DNA of 64,000 bases, from contig CAWDLW010000027.1 of assembly GCA_963803145.1 (NCBI GenBank), positions 1-64,000 of the forward strand, in the 5' to 3' direction. The translations under genes and the position numbers were made by a program. This DNA is from Methanotrichaceae archaeon (GTDB lineage: Archaea; Halobacteriota; Methanosarcinia; Methanotrichales; Methanotrichaceae). Shown here piece by piece: positions 9,676-16,431 of this stretch. The number at the start of each line of letters is the position of its first letter. Within the stretch, counting starts at the first letter, position 1. The notes under the pieces were generated by a model. The model saw only the letters and a list, made by a program, of their open reading frames with translations. It was not told the DNA's origin and did no database searches.

Positions 9676-10803
9676 GTGGAGGGAATAAGACCCAATGGAG
9701 GAAGGGAAGTGGCCCAAGAAAAGGAAAGCCTGAAAGAGGTCCCTGCCAAAGAGATACTTGATAAGATCGAGAATGGCAAGCCAGTAGAGTATGATAGCAT
9801 CATAATCAATGGCAATTTAGATTTGACTAAACTGTCCCTCCCAGCCATACACATAGAGCGAGACCCCATCGATATTGATTATTTTGAGTTATCGGATGCA
9901 AAACTTATCGAATCTCCTATAGAAATCACAAAATCAATTATTAAAGGAGCTATTACATCCTCTAACATATTTTTTAACCATGAGGTGAACTTTAAAAATG
10001 TTACGTTTTATAATGATGTCTCATTCTTCTTCGCCATATTTGACGGATTTGCCGGATTTCAAAACTGTAAATTTGAAAATGAGTGTGTGTTTCTCGGCGC
10101 CCAATTCAACGGATTTGCCAACTTTTCAGGTTCTCGATTTAATGATGAAGCATCATTTAATTCATCTGAGTTTGAAAGTAATGCTATCTTCTCTGAGGCA
10201 GAATTCATTCAGGACGCTGATTTTAGCTATGCGACATTAAATGGGGAAACGTACTTCAGCGAGTCTATGTTTTGGAAGAACTTATACTTCGTTAAGAGCA
10301 AATTAAATGGAATACTTCTATCGTTTCAGGGCGCAAAATTTACCGATCCAATATCTGAAGAGCTATGCTGTAGAACTGCAAAAAATATATTAGAAAAAAA
10401 TGGAGATCGTGAGGGAGCCGGATACCATTTCAATCGGGAAATGGTGGCGAAAAGGAAACAGAAACCTTGGTATATTCGATATCCAGAGTTCGTATTCATC
10501 CAGCTTATATTTGGATATGGGGTCCATCCGTTTAGGCTTTGGGCTTGCTGGTTTGGATTCGTCTTCCTTTTTGCCGTCATTTACTTACTTGGACACGGGA
10601 TAGATGCAGAGGCATCGCAATTAAAAAGAAATGCAACGCTAATAGACTATGTATGGTTCAGTATAGCTACGGCAGTCACACCAGGATATGCTGGCTATAA
10701 GCCAACGACTGAATTCAAATTGGTAGCAGGATTAGAGGCGATTCTCGGGACGTTTATGTGGGCAGCCTTCATCGCTACCTTTGCGAGAAAATACATGCGA
10801 TAA
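9676..10803 (+). CDS. Pentapeptide-repeat protein with C-terminal two-helix K-channel-like domain
   Basis: (A/V)xFxxxxF repeats; FGYGVHP..TM..FSIATAVTPGYAGYKP..TM. Confidence 0.85.
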   Translation: MEGIRPNGGREVAQEKESLKEVPAKEILDKIENGKPVEYDSIIINGNLDLTKLSLPAIHIERDPIDIDYFELSDAKLIESPIEITKSIIKGAITSSNIFFNHEVNFKNVTFYNDVSFFFAIFDGFAGFQNCKFENECVFLGAQFNGFANFSGSRFNDEASFNSSEFESNAIFSEAEFIQDADFSYATLNGETYFSESMFWKNLYFVKSKLNGILLSFQGAKFTDPISEELCCRTAKNILEKNGDREGAGYHFNREMVAKRKQKPWYIRYPEFVFIQLIFGYGVHPFRLWACWFGFVFLFAVIYLLGHGIDAEASQLKRNATLIDYVWFSIATAVTPGYAGYKPTTEFKLVAGLEAILGTFMWAAFIATFARKYMR

Positions 10804-10979
10804 CCATGTGCTGATAAAGCCCGTAGACAGGCAAAGCCAGCGATTAATCCTCAAAACCAAAGTAAATGACACACTGAGTTTATGTTCCCAGTTCAGATGA
10901 TCAGATAAAAAGCTTTTAATCAAGGAGTCACATTTAGCGTTTGTAGTGATTACTCTATACTCTCAATGCATAATGGGAG

Positions 10980-11913
10980 GTGCTTGATATGACTACTAGC
11001 TTGGCATCTTACCGCCGCTGTATTGAGCGTGCCAACTCGACATGGCCAATCTTTCTCAAAAAGAGAGATGAGAGGTTAGTCCAGCATAAAAGGCATGGTA
11101 CTGCGGCGGAAAAGGTAGCAGAGAATATCCTGGAGGACCTTTTCACAGAGGTACTTGATTGGTCCGTCTCAGATATCAATAATCAGGTGGATTACGCAGA
11201 CCTGCTTCTTACCCGCCTGGGCATAAAGTATCTTCTGGTTGAGGTAAAACGCCCTGGTTCTCTAGCATGGAACAGACGCGCAGTTGAAGCGGCCTTGGAT
11301 CAGGCATCGAGATATGCAGCCGAACAGAAAGTGAAGTGCATTGCCGTAAGCGATGGCATGATGCTTTACGCTGCAAACATCGAGCATGGTGGATTAAAAG
11401 ATAGAGTCTTCTTATCTCTTGAATCCTCCGAGCCTTTGGAAGCTTTGTGGTGGCTCAGCGTTCATGGAATCTACAGGCCCAGAGATGATCATGAGGATGC
11501 AAGCCTGCGTTTGCTTCCTGATGTTCCAGAGGAGACAGGCTCACAAGAGTGCTCGCCGGATGATGCACTTTTGCATCCAAAATATAAGGTTCCGGCTAGA
11601 TGCTTTGCATATGTTGGCGATGCTGGAGACACCCGCACTTGGAAGCTGCCGTACTGTAACCTTGATGGAAGCGTAGATGTTAAACGTCTCCCGAAGGCGA
11701 TCCAAGCAATCCTTAGCAATTACCGTGGTGCCAACGTATCTAGATCCAGTATTCCTGAGGAGGCTATACCAGATGTTCTGGTAAGATTAGGATGCGCTGC
11801 ATCTCGTATGGGCAGGATGCCTGGGCAATCTGGAGAAGCTGCGCCGGTATATCAGCAATTGGCGGAGGCCCCTCGAGCAATTTGGACGATTGGATAAAGT
11901 TATAGGTAAATAA
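10980..11913 (+). CDS. HsdR_N-like PD-(D/E)XK nuclease with extra C-terminal domain; +1 frameshift at the extreme 3' end
   Basis: YADLLL...LVEVKRP...ALDQASRYA...AVSDG; the duplicate at 17.7 kb shows the intact ending AEALEQFGRLDEVIGK; extra C in run 11869-11872. Confidence 0.7.
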
Positions 11914-11982
11914 GCATTTTACAGCCATAGATTCCAGTAGAAAATGATAGAAACTGCATCCAAAGCCCGTCAAACAGAGCAC

Positions 11983-13860
11983 CTATGAATAACTCAGCTC
12001 TTCTTTCTGGCTTTTGCTCAGCAAAAGGTTGATCCCTTTCGTATCATTATTGCTATCACTCCTTCTCGAGCTTTCCATTCCCTGAGTTACGCAAAGATCG
12101 GAGAATCTTCCGTTCAATGCCAATAGGTCATTCCAGCTGCCATGTTCAGCTATTTTGCCCATCTCAAGGACGTAGATCGTATCGGCACTTCTAAGTGTAG
12201 AGAGGCGATGGGTTATGATGAATGTGGTAAGCCTTCCCCGAAGGCCCTCGACTGCAGCCTGAATGCGCTTCTCGCTTTCTGAGTCAAGGTTGCTTGTGGC
12301 CTCGTCAAGTATGAGCAGTGAGGGCTTGCGCAATATGGCACGAGCCAGGGCAATACGCTGCCGTTCGCCGCCGGACAAACGTACGCCTCTGTCTCCAAGC
12401 AGCGTATCTAATCCTTCCGGCATACTTGATACAAACTCCTCTGCTGCTGCCAACCTCAGAGCCTCCATCATCTCTTCCTCTGAGGCTCCGGGGCAGGCCC
12501 ATGAGAGATTAGCTCTCACAGTATCGTTGAAAAGGAACGTGTCCTGAGATACATAGCCGATAAGTCTTCGCCAGGCTCTGATTTTCTCCGGGATGATCGC
12601 CTCGCCATCCACCAGTATTGAGCCTTTGGTCGGTCTTATAAGTCCCATCAGAAGGTCTGCCACAGTGCTTTTACCCGAGCCAGATGGCCCGACCAAGCCA
12701 ACGGTCTGGCCAACAGGAACATTTAGGTCTATGCCAGTTAGCACCTTCGTCTTATCATAGCCGAAGCAGACATCTTTGAACTCTATAGACCTATCCAAAC
12801 TAATTCTCTCTTCATGATTGGTCTTGACCTCTGCCTTTTCCTCCATATCCTTCACTGTCTCTTCAAGCGCCGAGAACGCAGGCAGGAGAGTTATGAACCT
12901 TTGGTAGCTCCCTTGAATTGTCGAGAACTTGGGCATGAGCCTTGCGAACAAAAAAAGAAGCACAAGCATAGACGTCAGAGGTACATCGAAGACCTTGAGG
13001 GATACGTAGAGTATGAAGCTTAAGGCTATTACTGAACCTATCTCGTATAGGTTTTCAACTAGGGCGTACTCGCGGGAGACCTCGATGTTTCCCTGGCCTA
13101 TCTTTTCTGCCTGGTATGAGAAAATTTCAGCATTCCTCTCCTCTGCGCTATAGCTCTTGGTGGTCTTCATAGCTGCCATATGCTCAAGAGCCGAGGCATA
13201 TAGAGCCTTGTTAGACTGGAAGATCTTGCGGCCAGTGGTCCTGGATCGCTCTGTATGTCCTTTGAGCGAATATACAAGGCAGCTGCCCGATATCAAAACC
13301 AGAAGTGTCGCATAGATTGAGATGCGTAGTGCGAGGACCAGATAGACCAGTGCTACAACTATATTGACCACGAGGTACAGGACCTGATAGGTTCCATACC
13401 CTACTCTATCTGTCTCCTGCATCAGCAGCTGGGCTAAGTCAGAGGATCTGCTTTTGGATAAGTAAAGATAATCGGCGTTAGCTAGAGCTCTATAGAACCT
13501 CTCTCTAAGGTGCATGATAAAATTATGCTGGATATATGAGCTGGTGTTTGATTGCAAACGATTAAGCGCTGACTGCAGGCTGACCATTGCGATGTATAGA
13601 ATCAGCACAGATTCGAGCGTAGGCTTGATGTTGAGAGCTGAAAAAGCACAAGCAATAGCTCCCGCAATCTGGCCAAGGTTTCCCTGCTGGACGTCGAAGC
13701 CGACGATCTGAAGCATAGGGATTAAAAGAAGTAAGCTTGCGCCCTCTGAGATTGCCATAAATATCATCAGTCCCACGACCAGAGCTACCTGGTAAGGCAT
13801 GTCCTTGGCCAAAGACCGGGTGTAGTTTAGAAACGGATTATTCAAATCTAGCTTAACCAC
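11983..13860 (-). CDS. ABC exporter, fused TMD-NBD
   Basis: Multiple N-terminal TM helices, GPSGSGKS, LSGGERQR, LILDEATS, ITH. Confidence 0.93.
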   Translation of the reverse strand: MVKLDLNNPFLNYTRSLAKDMPYQVALVVGLMIFMAISEGASLLLLIPMLQIVGFDVQQGNLGQIAGAIACAFSALNIKPTLESVLILYIAMVSLQSALNRLQSNTSSYIQHNFIMHLRERFYRALANADYLYLSKSRSSDLAQLLMQETDRVGYGTYQVLYLVVNIVVALVYLVLALRISIYATLLVLISGSCLVYSLKGHTERSRTTGRKIFQSNKALYASALEHMAAMKTTKSYSAEERNAEIFSYQAEKIGQGNIEVSREYALVENLYEIGSVIALSFILYVSLKVFDVPLTSMLVLLFLFARLMPKFSTIQGSYQRFITLLPAFSALEETVKDMEEKAEVKTNHEERISLDRSIEFKDVCFGYDKTKVLTGIDLNVPVGQTVGLVGPSGSGKSTVADLLMGLIRPTKGSILVDGEAIIPEKIRAWRRLIGYVSQDTFLFNDTVRANLSWACPGASEEEMMEALRLAAAEEFVSSMPEGLDTLLGDRGVRLSGGERQRIALARAILRKPSLLILDEATSNLDSESEKRIQAAVEGLRGRLTTFIITHRLSTLRSADTIYVLEMGKIAEHGSWNDLLALNGRFSDLCVTQGMESSRRSDSNNDTKGINLLLSKSQKEELSYS

Positions 13861-14014
13861 TTCTTAATCTTTGATGCATACCTGTTTATGAGCTTTTGCT
13901 GATGCAATTAAATTGAAAAGCGAGAGCAGCGGATATAAGGCTGATCAGTTAATTCACGAACGTAAATTCTAGAACCACTCTGATTTCGCATTCTGGGCTA
14001 CCATTAATTTAAGA

Positions 14015-14041
14015 GACTATACTTTCTTCTGGGGCTAAAAC
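14015..14041 (+). repeat. Left part of a REP-like repeat interrupted by IS110
   Basis: gactatactttcttctggggctaaaac resembles the reverse complement of about 18933-18959. Confidence 0.75.
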
Positions 14042-14109
14042 GCCCATGATCCTTAAGGGTCATACGTGGCGGATGAAAAACCTCACATTCATGGCCAACT
14101 ATGTTTAGT

Positions 14110-14262
14110 CTGATATGGGCAGTGAAGGCAGCTTTAATTTTGAGATCATGATCTCGCGGCTAAAACTGGCCAATAATCCCGCGAATACGGGGCTGCGTCG
14201 TTGAACGCGTATGGGAAATTGCCCCTTATGAGGGTTTAATCTTAATCATCTGCCCATATCAG
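14110..14262 (+). ncRNA. Putative bridge/seek RNA of the IS110
   Basis: 13-bp closing stem ctgatatgggcag/ctgcccatatcag, internal stems, target-matching ggctaaaact and donor-matching atgggaaa. Confidence 0.7.
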
Positions 14263-14275
14263 GATAGCGACATAT

Positions 14276-15535
14276 ATGGGCAAACGAAGAGATAGAGTTT
14301 GCGGAGCAGATGTCCATAAAGATCTCATAGTAGCCACGATCGAAGATGCAGATGGGACTGAAATCCAGGAACAGTTTGGCACGACTCGTTCTGAGCTAGA
14401 GAGATTCAGGAATTGGCTCATAGCCAATAATTGCGAGCAAGTAGCATTCGAAGCTACAGGTGTTTACTGGTTTCCAGTATACGATTGCCTGAGTCCCTCT
14501 ATTGATACAATTGTAGCAAATCCATGGATGGTCAAAGGACTTGTAGGGGATAAGTCGGATTCTCATGACGCTAAGAGGATTGCAGGTAACTGCTTGGATG
14601 GCAAAATCAAGAGATCAAGAGTCTTTTCCAATGAGGATAGAGCCCTCAGAATGATGACCCGTGCCAGATCAGGATATATAAAGACTCAAACTCAACTTAG
14701 AAACAGAGTTCATAAGTATCTAGCACTTTGCGGCATAAAGCTGAGTTCTTGTATTTCAGACATCTTTGGTAAATCAGGCAGGATTATCTTGGACGGCCTG
14801 GTTGAAGGCAAGGATGCAGACTCGATCCTGGACAGAATCACTTCAAAGAAGATCAAGAAAAAGCGAGACGTCATCAAAGCGGCTCTTGCAAACGGTCTTG
14901 ATGATACTTCGAGAATGCTTGTTAAGGATAATCTAGAGCTCCTTGATCTTCTGAAAAAGAAGATAGATAAAACAAGTCTTGAAGTGCTTAGCAAATTTCA
15001 GAAAAGCGCTAAAGATCTGGCAATAGTTATGTCAATTCCAGGAATAAGTTTTAGATCAGGGTCGACCATCTTGGCAGAAATCGGTGACTATCACGATTTC
15101 CAAACCCCAGAACAAATCGCTAAATGGTGTGGATTGGTTCCTGGACTACACGAATCTGCAGGGAAAAAGAAGCAATGTGGTATTACGAAACAGGGGTCCA
15201 AGAGTCTCAGAACTATGCTTGTCGAGATAGCTCAAGTGATAGCTAAGATGAGAAATAACAAGAACAAGCTCTCAAGGTACTTCCATAGATTATCGGCCAG
15301 AAAGAGTTACAATGTAGCGATCACTGCTTTAGCACGGAAATTAATCACAATAATTTATCATCTGCTGATCAATCAAGAGCTATATCAAGAGAACAACTGC
15401 ACTACAGCTGCATCAAAACCAGTCAAAAGGGACCTCCTCTATCTATCAAAAGATGACCGATTAAAGGATGGAGTGGCTGCTATCGTAGACGCCTTTTATC
15501 ACTTGAAGAATAGACATTCGGTAGGGGGTGGATAG
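14276..15535 (+). CDS. IS110 family recombinase/transposase
   Basis: DEDD RuvC-like motifs GADVHK, FEATGVYW, KSDSHDA; C-terminal GLVP..ESAGK serine loop, ALARKL. Confidence 0.95.
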   Translation: MGKRRDRVCGADVHKDLIVATIEDADGTEIQEQFGTTRSELERFRNWLIANNCEQVAFEATGVYWFPVYDCLSPSIDTIVANPWMVKGLVGDKSDSHDAKRIAGNCLDGKIKRSRVFSNEDRALRMMTRARSGYIKTQTQLRNRVHKYLALCGIKLSSCISDIFGKSGRIILDGLVEGKDADSILDRITSKKIKKKRDVIKAALANGLDDTSRMLVKDNLELLDLLKKKIDKTSLEVLSKFQKSAKDLAIVMSIPGISFRSGSTILAEIGDYHDFQTPEQIAKWCGLVPGLHESAGKKKQCGITKQGSKSLRTMLVEIAQVIAKMRNNKNKLSRYFHRLSARKSYNVAITALARKLITIIYHLLINQELYQENNCTTAASKPVKRDLLYLSKDDRLKDGVAAIVDAFYHLKNRHSVGGG

Positions 15536-15577
15536 CACCCCATTTCTTTTAATTGATGAAGGTTTTTCATGGGAAAC

Positions 15578-15645
15578 TAATGGCCTTCTAGCGCGCTCAG
15601 TCGCCGCGCGGGCTACCCCTAACCCCTCGCTGGGGGAAGATTTTG
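15578..15645 (+). repeat. Right part of the REP-like repeat interrupted by IS110
   Basis: ctagcgcgctcagtcgccgcgcgggct is the exact reverse complement of 18895-18921. Confidence 0.85.
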
Positions 15646-15711
15646 GAAAACGCATGAGATAAGGTTGAAGAGGATATGATTAACGATTCCTTCTATTTGT
15701 AATGTCGGAAG

Positions 15712-15982
15712 CTTCATGCCCAGGAACCCTTGGGTACTGCAGCCCTGGGAAGCGGCCTTCTTTGACGATTGCATCTCCGTGGCATACTCCGCAGGCTTCT
15801 ACTTTGATGAGAACTTCGTTTTCTTTTGGCTTTGGAGATTTCTTTTTGGACCAGCTCAAAGTCGCCGCCTGGTGAACTTACTTGGACTACGTTCATCAAT
15901 GGCATGATGTATATCTTTCGTCTCTCAACTTAAATAGACGTATGCGTTCTGAAAATTATTTTGGATTCTCAAATGGATGCTC
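15712..15982 (-). pseudogene. Duplicated 5' fragment of adh plus its upstream region
   Basis: Near-identical to 9245-9514; frameshifted and truncated at GHE. Confidence 0.9.
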
Positions 15983-16107
15983 TATCCGAAACTTCGGCAT
16001 ATTACTTAGAGGAACATTAAATCCAGTCAGATAAAGGTATGCCAAGGAGTCTACAATAAGATAGAAATAAATAACTTGGAAATGGATCAGCTTTGAGGAG
16101 ATGGTGA

Positions 16108-16431
16108 TTGATGGGGCTTACCTCAATACTAATTATAGAAGAACTTGGAAATGATAAGTATGTTCTAAAATGTGCATGCTGCAACGGCTCTGGGAAAATG
16201 TCGAGAGATCACGATGGCAGATCTCCCTATGAGATATGTTCTGTTTGTAGGGGCAGAGGAATCGTTTTAGTAGAAATTAATGGGAATCTTCCTTTTGTAA
16301 AATGTGCATGCTGTAATAGTTCTGGGGAAATGTCAAGAGATCACGATGGCAGAAGCCCATACACTATATGCAAAGTATGTGATGGCGTAGGTGCTGTACC
16401 AATTACAGGATCTATGAAGCTTATAAAATAA
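16108..16431 (+). CDS. Small DnaJ-type zinc-finger protein with internal duplication
   Basis: Four CxxCx(G/S)xG motifs; two copies of KCACCNxSGxMSRDHDGRSPYxIC. Confidence 0.8.
   Translation: MMGLTSILIIEELGNDKYVLKCACCNGSGKMSRDHDGRSPYEICSVCRGRGIVLVEINGNLPFVKCACCNSSGEMSRDHDGRSPYTICKVCDGVGAVPITGSMKLIK

Follow-up and report, generated by a model that had tools for sequence, protein, structure and literature searches.

An IS110-family insertion sequence of a Methanotrichaceae archaeon lies at positions 14038–15577 (forward strand) of a 64,000-nucleotide stretch of genomic DNA, positions 1–64,000 of contig CAWDLW010000027.1 (assembly GCA_963803145.1), which is referred to here as the window. Comparison with its relatives makes it highly probable that this element is autonomous and recently active, and that its left end encodes a bridge (seek) RNA of two modules in which the guide for the top strand of the target comes first. 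To our knowledge, every bridge or seek RNA demonstrated so far belongs to a bacterial element.

The evidence for this reading is comparative. The predicted RNA covaries as a folded structure, and segments of it change together with the DNA that flanks each insertion and with the right end of the element. An initial annotation of the window, made from its letters, had read guides for both target and donor DNA in the left end; several of its features are recovered below, and the loop layout that it drew is replaced.

The element, its recombinase and its relatives

The boundaries of the element, with the tetranucleotide aaac counted at both ends, were read from nine genomic copies, their junctions and unoccupied sites; its length is 1536 bp when the shared aaac is counted once. 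An open reading frame (ORF; 14276–15535, +) encodes a DEDD/Ser recombinase of 419 amino acids, with 234 nt of non-coding sequence to its left and 42 nt to its right. The protein matches PF01548 (DEDD_Tnp_IS110, N-terminal; E = 1.1e-18) and PF02371 (Transposase_20, C-terminal; E = 2.4e-23), scores 252 bits on NCBIfam NF033542 ('IS110 family RNA-guided transposase'; cut-off 140) and aligns to the solved structure of the IS621 recombinase (8wt6; E = 1.9e-12). Residues D12, E59, D95, D98 and S294, which are invariant across six relatives, align with D11, E60, D102, D105 and S241, named as the catalytic residues of IS621 by Hiraizumi et al. (PMC11208158). By these sequence criteria, membership of the IS110 family is established.

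The host genome (4.13 Mb in 51 contigs, 45% G+C) contains a full-length archaeal small subunit (SSU) rRNA (1560 bits), which identifies the host as an archaeon, and the nearest relatives of the element come from metagenome-assembled genomes of Methanotrichaceae, Methanothrix or Methanosaeta. The description of an archaeal IS110-family element in the initial annotation is therefore borne out by the domain matches, the rRNA and the archaeal relatives. Two of its adjectives do not survive. The recombinase is not 'larger', as 419 amino acids falls within the 395–455 of the IS110-proper subgroup (PMC11187229), nor is the variant 'compact', as the closed RNA of about 153 nt, in a left non-coding end of 234 nt, compares with a 177-nt bridge RNA in IS621.

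Relatives were collected in a scan of species-representative genomes, which gave 10 loci, and in a metagenome scan from which the best 80 of 187 relatives were used (59–96% identity). The left end, right end, flanks and RNA region of each were cut out by conserved motifs, and the few loci without an end or a motif drop out of the counts concerned. A covariance model built on the comparative structure described below served to find more distant archaeal elements. The same RNA structure precedes the transposase gene in about 100 relatives (34–96% protein identity), and the model finds the RNA in this position in archaeal relatives with 32–47% protein identity, the weakest being locus L021 (34%). 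In three Bacillota plasmid loci that encode the closest bacterial proteins the model did not find the RNA (best E = 0.23, filters off); absence in bacteria cannot be shown from this, because only three Bacillota loci were covered.

Conserved structure of the candidate RNA

RNAalifold applied to 64 unique sequences, together with explicit pair counts, gave six helices, all on the forward strand. The outermost, P1, is the perfect 13-bp stem 14110–14122/14250–14262 that the initial annotation had pointed out; it is conserved, and 9 of its 13 pairs show double changes in the wider alignment. Inside it lie two modules. The target-binding loop is closed by P2, in which GGC (14127–14129) pairs with GCC (14169–14171) in 100% of cells and with compensatory changes, and it contains P3, a small stem-loop (GAGAU-caug-AUCUC, 14142–14155) between the two target guides, with 4/4 pairs compensatory in an alignment of 27 diverse sequences (A3). 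The donor-binding module is closed by P7, CCC (14178–14180) with GGG (14232–14234), for which 3/3 pairs are compensatory in A3. Within this module P4 joins GGGG (14189–14192) to CCCC (14222–14225), with a G–C to A–U double change in 21 of the 64 sequences. The ggggc/gcccc arm (14189–93/14221–25) enclosing atgggaaa had been proposed before, and these compensatory changes uphold its GGGG/CCCC stem. Inside the donor-binding loop, the P5 stem-loop (GCGU-cguuga-ACGC, 14195–14208) is nearly invariant and 100% paired.

Taken together, the six helices are paired in 96.6% of cells across the 64 sequences, and the five pairs with double changes were matched in 0 of 500 shuffles. In A3, 24 of 31 pairs have compensatory double changes (0/500 shuffles), against 5–8 pairs in slid controls. 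The fold of 14105–14267 is also more stable than that of shuffled sequences (z = −4.49, 0/200). On this comparative evidence, covariation in the structure of the predicted RNA is established.

Folding single sequences by minimum free energy recovers P1 but places the left guide in a helix with the GGCC that follows it; these folds were set aside for the comparative structure. A search of Rfam over 13500–16200 gave no relevant match at E up to 10. One sequencing run (contigs, with the RNA type guessed) covers 14176–14556 with the sequence of a relative, under 90–99% likeness, and cannot show a transcript, its start or its end.

Target guides

Just 5′ of a conserved NGCCA, every element has a segment of 13 nt whose last letters are AAAC. 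In the window copy this segment includes the left target guide GGCUAAAAC (14158–14166, +), which is identical to the top strand of the left target and core. The initial annotation had read the longer word ggctaaaact (14158–67) as identical to the target across the junction, and the identity is indeed 10/10. For the window alone, a match of at least 10 nt to the 40-nt target arose in 27 of 3000 dinucleotide shuffles.

Once relatives are included, the match is strongly non-random. Contiguous identity between guide and flank beyond AAAC has a mean of 4.13 nt, compared with 1.68 nt after shuffling (0/10000; 71 loci, 52 unique pairs). The guides fall into 15 classes, for example GGCTAAAAC, CCCTAAAC, GGCCTAAAC, GCCCTAAAC, ACTGAAAC, TAAAAAAAC, TATATAAAC, CCATTGAAAC and GATTGAAAC, and each of these is found beside its own kind of flank. 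When all RNA columns were compared with all flank positions, the four variable left-flank positions fell on the identity diagonal with values of 0.91–1.00. Among distant archaeal elements, 8 of 15 have a guide match of at least 8 nt exactly at their own ...|(c/a)ccatga junction, as against 0 of 202 cross pairings. The initial annotation had suggested comparing the guide with insertion sites in relatives, and for the left target guide at 14158–14166 that comparison bears it out.

Two loci illustrate the relationship from the side of the target. In L115 (110–370), a copy of the element is inserted in the guide-encoding DNA (GATTGAAAC) of another copy, and in L107 (1769–1832) a copy likewise lies in guide DNA (GATTGAAAC), with a CRISPR repeat as its left flank and the remaining bridge-RNA gene as its right flank. 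Insertions of this kind are expected, because the guide is identical to the target.

A second segment, 5′ of the small stem-loop, is the proposed right target guide. In the window copy it is CUUUAAUUUU (14132–14141, +), complementary to the top strand of the core and right flank AAAACTAATG. Alignment column 29, which lies in this segment, is complementary to the first right-flank base in 77% of pairs; it has the highest mutual information, and no other RNA column gives a clear signal for that base. Outside the class of elements that insert after CRISPR repeats ending ATTGAAAC (discussed below), pairing of the 5′ segment with core and right flank averages 5.48, versus 4.33 in shuffles (0/10000; 25 unique pairs), with 9/9 in L058 and 8/8 in L043, L059 and L060. 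Within the ATTGAAAC class (38 pairs), the corresponding values of 4.24 and 4.09 do not differ significantly (1065/10000); the right flank of these elements is a CRISPR spacer, without a match to the 5′ guide. Comparison of aligned sequences therefore establishes that guide and DNA covary for the left target guide and, in relatives outside the ATTGAAAC class, for the proposed right target guide. The order of the two is right-flank (top-strand) guide first, at columns 24–33, and left-flank guide second, at columns 54–63.

Donor guide and element ends

The left donor guide, AUGGGAAA (ATGGGAAA; 14211–14218, +), is identical to the right end plus core. The word atgggaaa had been singled out in the initial annotation as matching the right end, and the relatives strengthen that assignment. 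The variable base of CATG[G]GAAA is the same in the RNA and in the right end in 98% of 58 unique pairs, and distant relatives that carry ATAGGAAT, ATGTGAAA, ATATTAAA, ATACTAAA or ATGCCAAA have the same word at the right end each time. For this guide, too, covariation with DNA is established by comparison.

Both ends of the element are marked by inverted repeats. The left subterminal repeat CCCATGA (14043–14049) forms a perfect 7-bp pair with TCATGGG (15567–15573) and is conserved in relatives. Further in, ATGAAAAACCT (14073–14083) is the reverse complement of 15560–15570, which belongs to the right subterminal repeat AGGTTTTTCATGGG (15560–15573). The 11-nt repeat and the CCCATGA/TCATGGG pair amount to a split 14-nt repeat. 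In relatives the inner half and the right end change together, ATGGAAAACCACATA occurring with TATGTGGTTTTCCAT in another subclade. A terminal hairpin, ATGATCC-ttaa-GGGTCAT (14046–14063), folds at the left end and may serve as the 5′ stem-loop of the RNA; relatives retain a hairpin here in altered sequence (TGAGCCC...GGGGCTCA).

The core aaac is present at both ends (14038–41 and 15574–15577), as the initial annotation had stated. In one relative (L120:1–2663) the contig reads as 2 × 1596 + 5 nt with the ends abutted, ...CATGGGAAAC|GCCCATG..., and with 0 mismatches in the 1066-nt overlap. This contig fits either a circle or a tandem dimer.

Insertion sites and the target repeat

The nine genomic copies are 98–100% identical. 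Six are full copies, a seventh runs off a contig end and two are interrupted by other insertions of about 1.1–1.2 kb, at G000:C15:16106–18730 (L133 about 10300–12930) and G000:C25:147828–150599. The ORFs of the C15 insert carry HTH_23 and DDE_3 domains and are IS630-like.

All eight readable left junctions have the form ...ct(g/a)(g/a)GGCTA-AAAC|gcccatga and lie at GGCTAAAAC in one repeat family; in the window, the left target half and shared core are tggggctaaaac (14030–14041), and (g/a)gGCTAAAAC recurs at 8/8 of these junctions. At the right, eight of nine junctions read catggg-AAAC|ta(a/g)(t/c)gg and then CTAGCGCGCTCAGTCGCCGCGCGGGCT. Unoccupied copies of the repeat in the same genome read ...ttctggGGCTAAAACtaa(t/c)gg..., so insertion is precise, with only aaac shared; the element is the sole difference between occupied and unoccupied copies, and nothing of the target beyond this core is duplicated. 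The target that the initial annotation had rebuilt by joining the flanks is thus present as such in the genome. Its view that the element is programmed against a repeat family agrees with the flanks, which belong to one family at 8/8 left and 8/9 right junctions; other copies at sites unrelated to ggctaaaac, which it had named as grounds for giving up the proposal, were looked for among the readable left junctions, and 8/8 lie at GGCTAAAAC. Precise, repeat-specific insertion is established by these junction comparisons.

The 9-mer GGCTAAAAC occurs 63 times in the genome. Eight occurrences are occupied, all of them in the repeat, and nine are the guide-encoding stretches of the copies themselves; some 17 belong to repeat copies without an insertion and about 28 lie elsewhere, none of the latter being occupied. 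As these roughly 28 sites are empty, more than the 9-mer contributes to the choice of site. Candidates for the additional determinant are the right flank TAA and the neighbouring GC hairpin, alone or together; for ISPpu10, a target stem-loop adds specificity (10.64898/2026.03.19.712850).

In the window the right target half and remaining repeat (15578–15690, +) comprise taatggcc, a GC-rich hairpin CTAGCGCGC...GCGCGGGCT and further hairpins. The repeat as a whole occupies 13990–14041 and 15578–15700. Its hairpin motif has 82 genomic matches at up to 5 mismatches, which indicates that the family has at least 82 members. A consensus drawn from 58 unoccupied copies is about 230 nt long, with an A/T-rich, TATA-like box TAATATAATTCAAAAG some 25–30 nt upstream of CTTCTGGGGCTAA, followed by three covarying hairpins. 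The repeat may be MITE-like or represent a gene for a small RNA, and an Rfam scan of two repeat-rich regions gave no match for it. It sometimes occurs in tandem pairs about 140 bp apart, and islands of it are found with PIN, nucleotidyltransferase and TnpB genes (for example G000:C15:5800–22000, C8:431500–441500 and C23 about 154–166 kb, −). That it is the end of a TnpB (IS605-like) element was rejected, the repeat being upstream at only one of eight TnpB-like loci; a conserved ATG after the repeat was likewise rejected as a gene start, the repeat tail being the third covarying hairpin. A solo 44-nt fragment of the left end of the element (86% identity; G000:C8:285879–285922, inverted) abuts a copy of the target repeat.

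A short ORF in the window (15680–15859, −) ends beside the target repeat and may be a truncated gene. Its product is presumably similar to zinc-type alcohol dehydrogenases at their N-terminus (…EACGVCHGD…).

Relatives in CRISPR arrays

A large subclade of relatives, with the left guide GATTGAAAC, is inserted exactly after the last base of 37-nt CRISPR repeats ending ATTGAAAC. Of 41 loci examined with guides ending TTGAAAC, one had a flank too short to use, and 19 of the other 40 contain further copies of their own 24-nt left flank, mostly at a 72–76 bp period. In L092 (125–3627), a 37-nt repeat ending ATTGAAAC is present on both sides of the element; in L121 (125–2801) another 37-nt repeat occurs 15 times, and the element follows precisely on the tenth. 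L046, L085, L090, L099 and L122 are likewise situated in arrays, which run on both sides of the element. At least four unrelated repeat families hold elements of the ATTGAAAC class, and only the last 8 nt are common to them.

These insertions may explain earlier sightings of CRISPR-repeat-like sequence in IS110 elements. Thermus IS1000 contains 32 bp that are identical to CRISPR repeats (PMC6352166), and Sulfolobus ISC1229 has sites for a CRISPR-repeat-binding protein (PMC10883916). The subclade also suggests a relation of conflict, or of safe harbour, between RNA-guided transposons and CRISPR memory.

Proposed mechanism

From these features a mechanism can be sketched. The RNA would be produced from the left end, conceivably from a promoter in the repeat upstream, and would be bound by the recombinase. 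In the target module, a GGC stem would be followed by the 5′ guide, complementing the top strand of core and right flank, by the small stem-loop, by the 3′ guide GGCUAAAAC and by the GCC stem; since GGCUAAAAC is identical to left flank plus core, it would pair with the bottom strand. In the donor module, the CCC and GGGG stems and the GCGU/ACGC stem-loop would precede the guide AUGGGAAA, which corresponds to right end plus core. The RNA-bound DEDD/Ser recombinase would then synapse the abutted ends (tcatggg-AAAC-gcccatga), presumably on a circle, with the site ggctAAAActaa; the junction of the abutted ends would be ...ttcatgggaaac|gcccatga... and the target ggggctaaaactaatgg. Strands would be exchanged within the shared AAA, and the element would enter the structured repeat, present in at least 82 copies, without duplication. 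Judged from the aligned junctions, the crossover must fall inside the aaa common to all classes.

Several observations weigh against this reading. The RNA is a predicted one, its 5′ and 3′ ends included. The A3 alignment was fitted to the model, so that its counts lean toward the model, and the relatives share kinship, so that the shuffle counts overstate independence. In the window alone, a donor-junction match of at least 8 nt was obtained in 644 of 3000 shuffles, which is not significant. Mutual information between all RNA columns and 14 left-end positions showed no diagonal of identity or of complementarity, so that no covarying partner in the RNA was found for the left end; gcgt is constant while the left-end base after AAAC differs between lineages, with G in some and A in many. 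The right flank of the C25 copy lies outside the repeat family. Finally, CUUUAAUUUU pairs with AAAACTAATG at only 8/10 positions by eye, with an A·C mismatch right after the AAAA run. The right target guide is hence the weakest link for the window copy, and its support comes from relatives.

Alternative readings

Three other readings were weighed. It is unlikely that the element is a canonical member of the IS1111 group and not of the IS110 group. Such membership would account for the 7-bp subterminal inverted repeats with their 11-nt inner half, and for a top-strand guide that comes first, as in the IS1111 seekRNAs. The marks of the IS110-proper subgroup that the element does not fit are the same two, namely a bottom-strand-guide-first order and subterminal inverted repeats that are absent or of 2–3 bp. 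On the other side, the longer non-coding region is upstream of the gene (234 versus 42 nt), which fits IS110 proper, and the protein has 419 amino acids as against 330–350 in IS1111. In the BLAST comparison, IS5075/IS4321 align through their C-terminal domain alone, at residues 251–371 (29% cover), whereas Bacillota IS110-type proteins show 33–36% identity over 85–92% of the length.

Very doubtful is the layout given in the initial annotation, in which ggctaaaac and ggccaataat share one 19-nt loop closed by tcgcgg/ccgcga (14154–59/14179–84) and gcgt is the right donor guide. The 6-bp stem and both matches do exist in this copy, where ggccaataat (14168–14177) agrees at 8/10 positions with the reverse complement of the right flank, and two of the six pairs of the stem (C50–G82 and G51–C81) are possible in most relatives. 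The stem is, however, paired in only 47.7% of cells across the 64 relatives, and as a helix is confined to the window element and its 96%-identical relative L053; the complementarity stands but its conservation does not. Likewise the 8/10 match holds for this copy, and the guide role does not. The ggccaataat segment is conserved (NGCCAAKAU) despite unrelated right flanks, shows no covariation and matches the flank no better than shuffles do (3.21 versus 3.09; 203/2000); its GCC is the 3′ strand of P2, pairing with GGC 14127–29 with compensatory changes. Six of eight repeat-type right flanks in the genome are ggtt, not ggcc, which lowers the match. The two target guides are not in one hairpin loop, as the segment that tracks the right flank sits 5′ of a separate stem-loop. 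As for gcgt, its letters can pair with acgc of the left end as claimed, but it is invariant while the left end varies. Either copy of gcgt, and also GGGC, was tried by eye as a right donor guide and rejected for want of covariation.

That the recombinase or the repeat hairpins pick the site, with the guide-like matches as passive copies and the RNA as a leader controlling transposase expression, can be given hardly any credence: all insertions do adjoin a GC-rich repeat hairpin with the ~28 other GGCTAAAAC sites unused, a target stem-loop does add to the specificity of ISPpu10 (10.64898/2026.03.19.712850) and the 3′ strand of P1 ends 13 nt upstream of the start codon, but each of the 15 guide classes agrees with its own flanks, always at one structural position, ATTGAAAC-class elements lie in at least four unrelated repeat contexts sharing only those 8 nt, copies insert into guide DNA itself, and guide RNAs have been demonstrated experimentally for the family (PMC11208160, PMC11187229).

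Comparison with known systems

Returning to the reading of an RNA-guided archaeal element, we put forward one further interpretation tentatively, rating it as plausible but somewhat short of probable. The clade would represent a third architectural class of IS110 guide RNAs, with the upstream non-coding region of IS110 and the top-strand-first guide order and long split repeats of IS1111. It would have been reprogrammed naturally many times (at least 15 target classes). One large subclade, whose left guide equals the conserved final 8 nt of CRISPR repeats (ATTGAAAC), would home to CRISPR repeat–spacer junctions in unrelated repeat families, and the window copy would home to a structured intergenic repeat whose TATA-like box could supply transcription. 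The guide-order class may already be catalogued, because a few IS1111-type elements are noted to carry their non-coding region upstream, and the IS110 type may conceal further families (PMC11187229). Our literature search, which was incomplete in coverage and drew on the accessible portions of its sources, found no description of an archaeal bridge RNA and none of IS110 guides aimed at CRISPR repeats.

Several consequences follow. The natural covariation offers a readable guide code for an archaeal clade, sampled in about 100 elements. The mixture of hallmarks of two recognized groups bears on how the RNA moved from one element end to the other in evolution, and the mixed layout on whether the enzyme is sensitive to the order of the guides. 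The natural series of reprogramming, with its 15 or more target classes, could seed new programmable recombinases.

Other archaeal IS110 elements, such as Sulfolobus ISC1229, share an archaeal host and the protein family, and 662 archaeal IS110 recombinases have been counted (10.1101/2024.06.21.599552). ISPpu9 and ISPpu10 (Pseudomonas putida, IS110 family) resemble the present element in that all copies lie in one repeat family with a GC-rich hairpin beside the site, and differ from it in having a bacterial host and an unrelated repeat (REP or intergenic).

The IS1111 seekRNAs or bridge RNAs (ISEc11, ISKpn4, ISPa11; IS5075/IS4321) are alike in carrying the top-strand complement 5′ of the bottom-strand one (PMC11187229), in having subterminal inverted repeats of 7 bp or longer (7–17 bp) and in using repeated, structured target sites. 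In these elements, unlike here, the non-coding region is downstream of the transposase gene, and the proteins have 330–350 amino acids (PMC11187229). ISEc21, of the IS110 type, also takes its guide RNA from an upstream non-coding region and shows natural reprogramming among relatives (PMC11187229). Its seekRNA has the bottom-strand match 5′ of the top-strand match (Siddiquee et al., PMC11187229), the opposite of the order found here.

The closest point of reference is IS621 of the IS110 group in E. coli (PMC11208160, PMC11208158). It likewise has a DEDD + Ser recombinase and an RNA encoded in a long left end upstream of the gene, the RNA has two modules, each in the order stem, guide, stem-loop, guide, stem, one guide corresponds to left target plus core and another to left donor (right end) plus core, and insertion into a genomic repeat is precise. 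The differences are several. The IS621 core is CT, compared with AAA/AAAC here, and its recombinase has 326 amino acids, compared with 419; long split subterminal repeats are found here, similarity at the level of Rfam or covariance models was not seen, and the mutual-information scan found no right donor guide in our elements. In IS621 the bottom-strand left target guide (A50–U58) precedes the stem-loop and the top-strand right target guide (G77–G80) follows it, whereas here this order is reversed in the target module and the donor guide that was found sits 3′ of its stem-loop. The RNA–DNA complex can nevertheless have the same geometry as in IS621, since the 3′ end of each guide lies at the core. 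The contrast with IS621 lies in how gene and RNA are oriented with respect to the recombination site; the mechanism belongs to a known kind, and it is the arrangement that varies.

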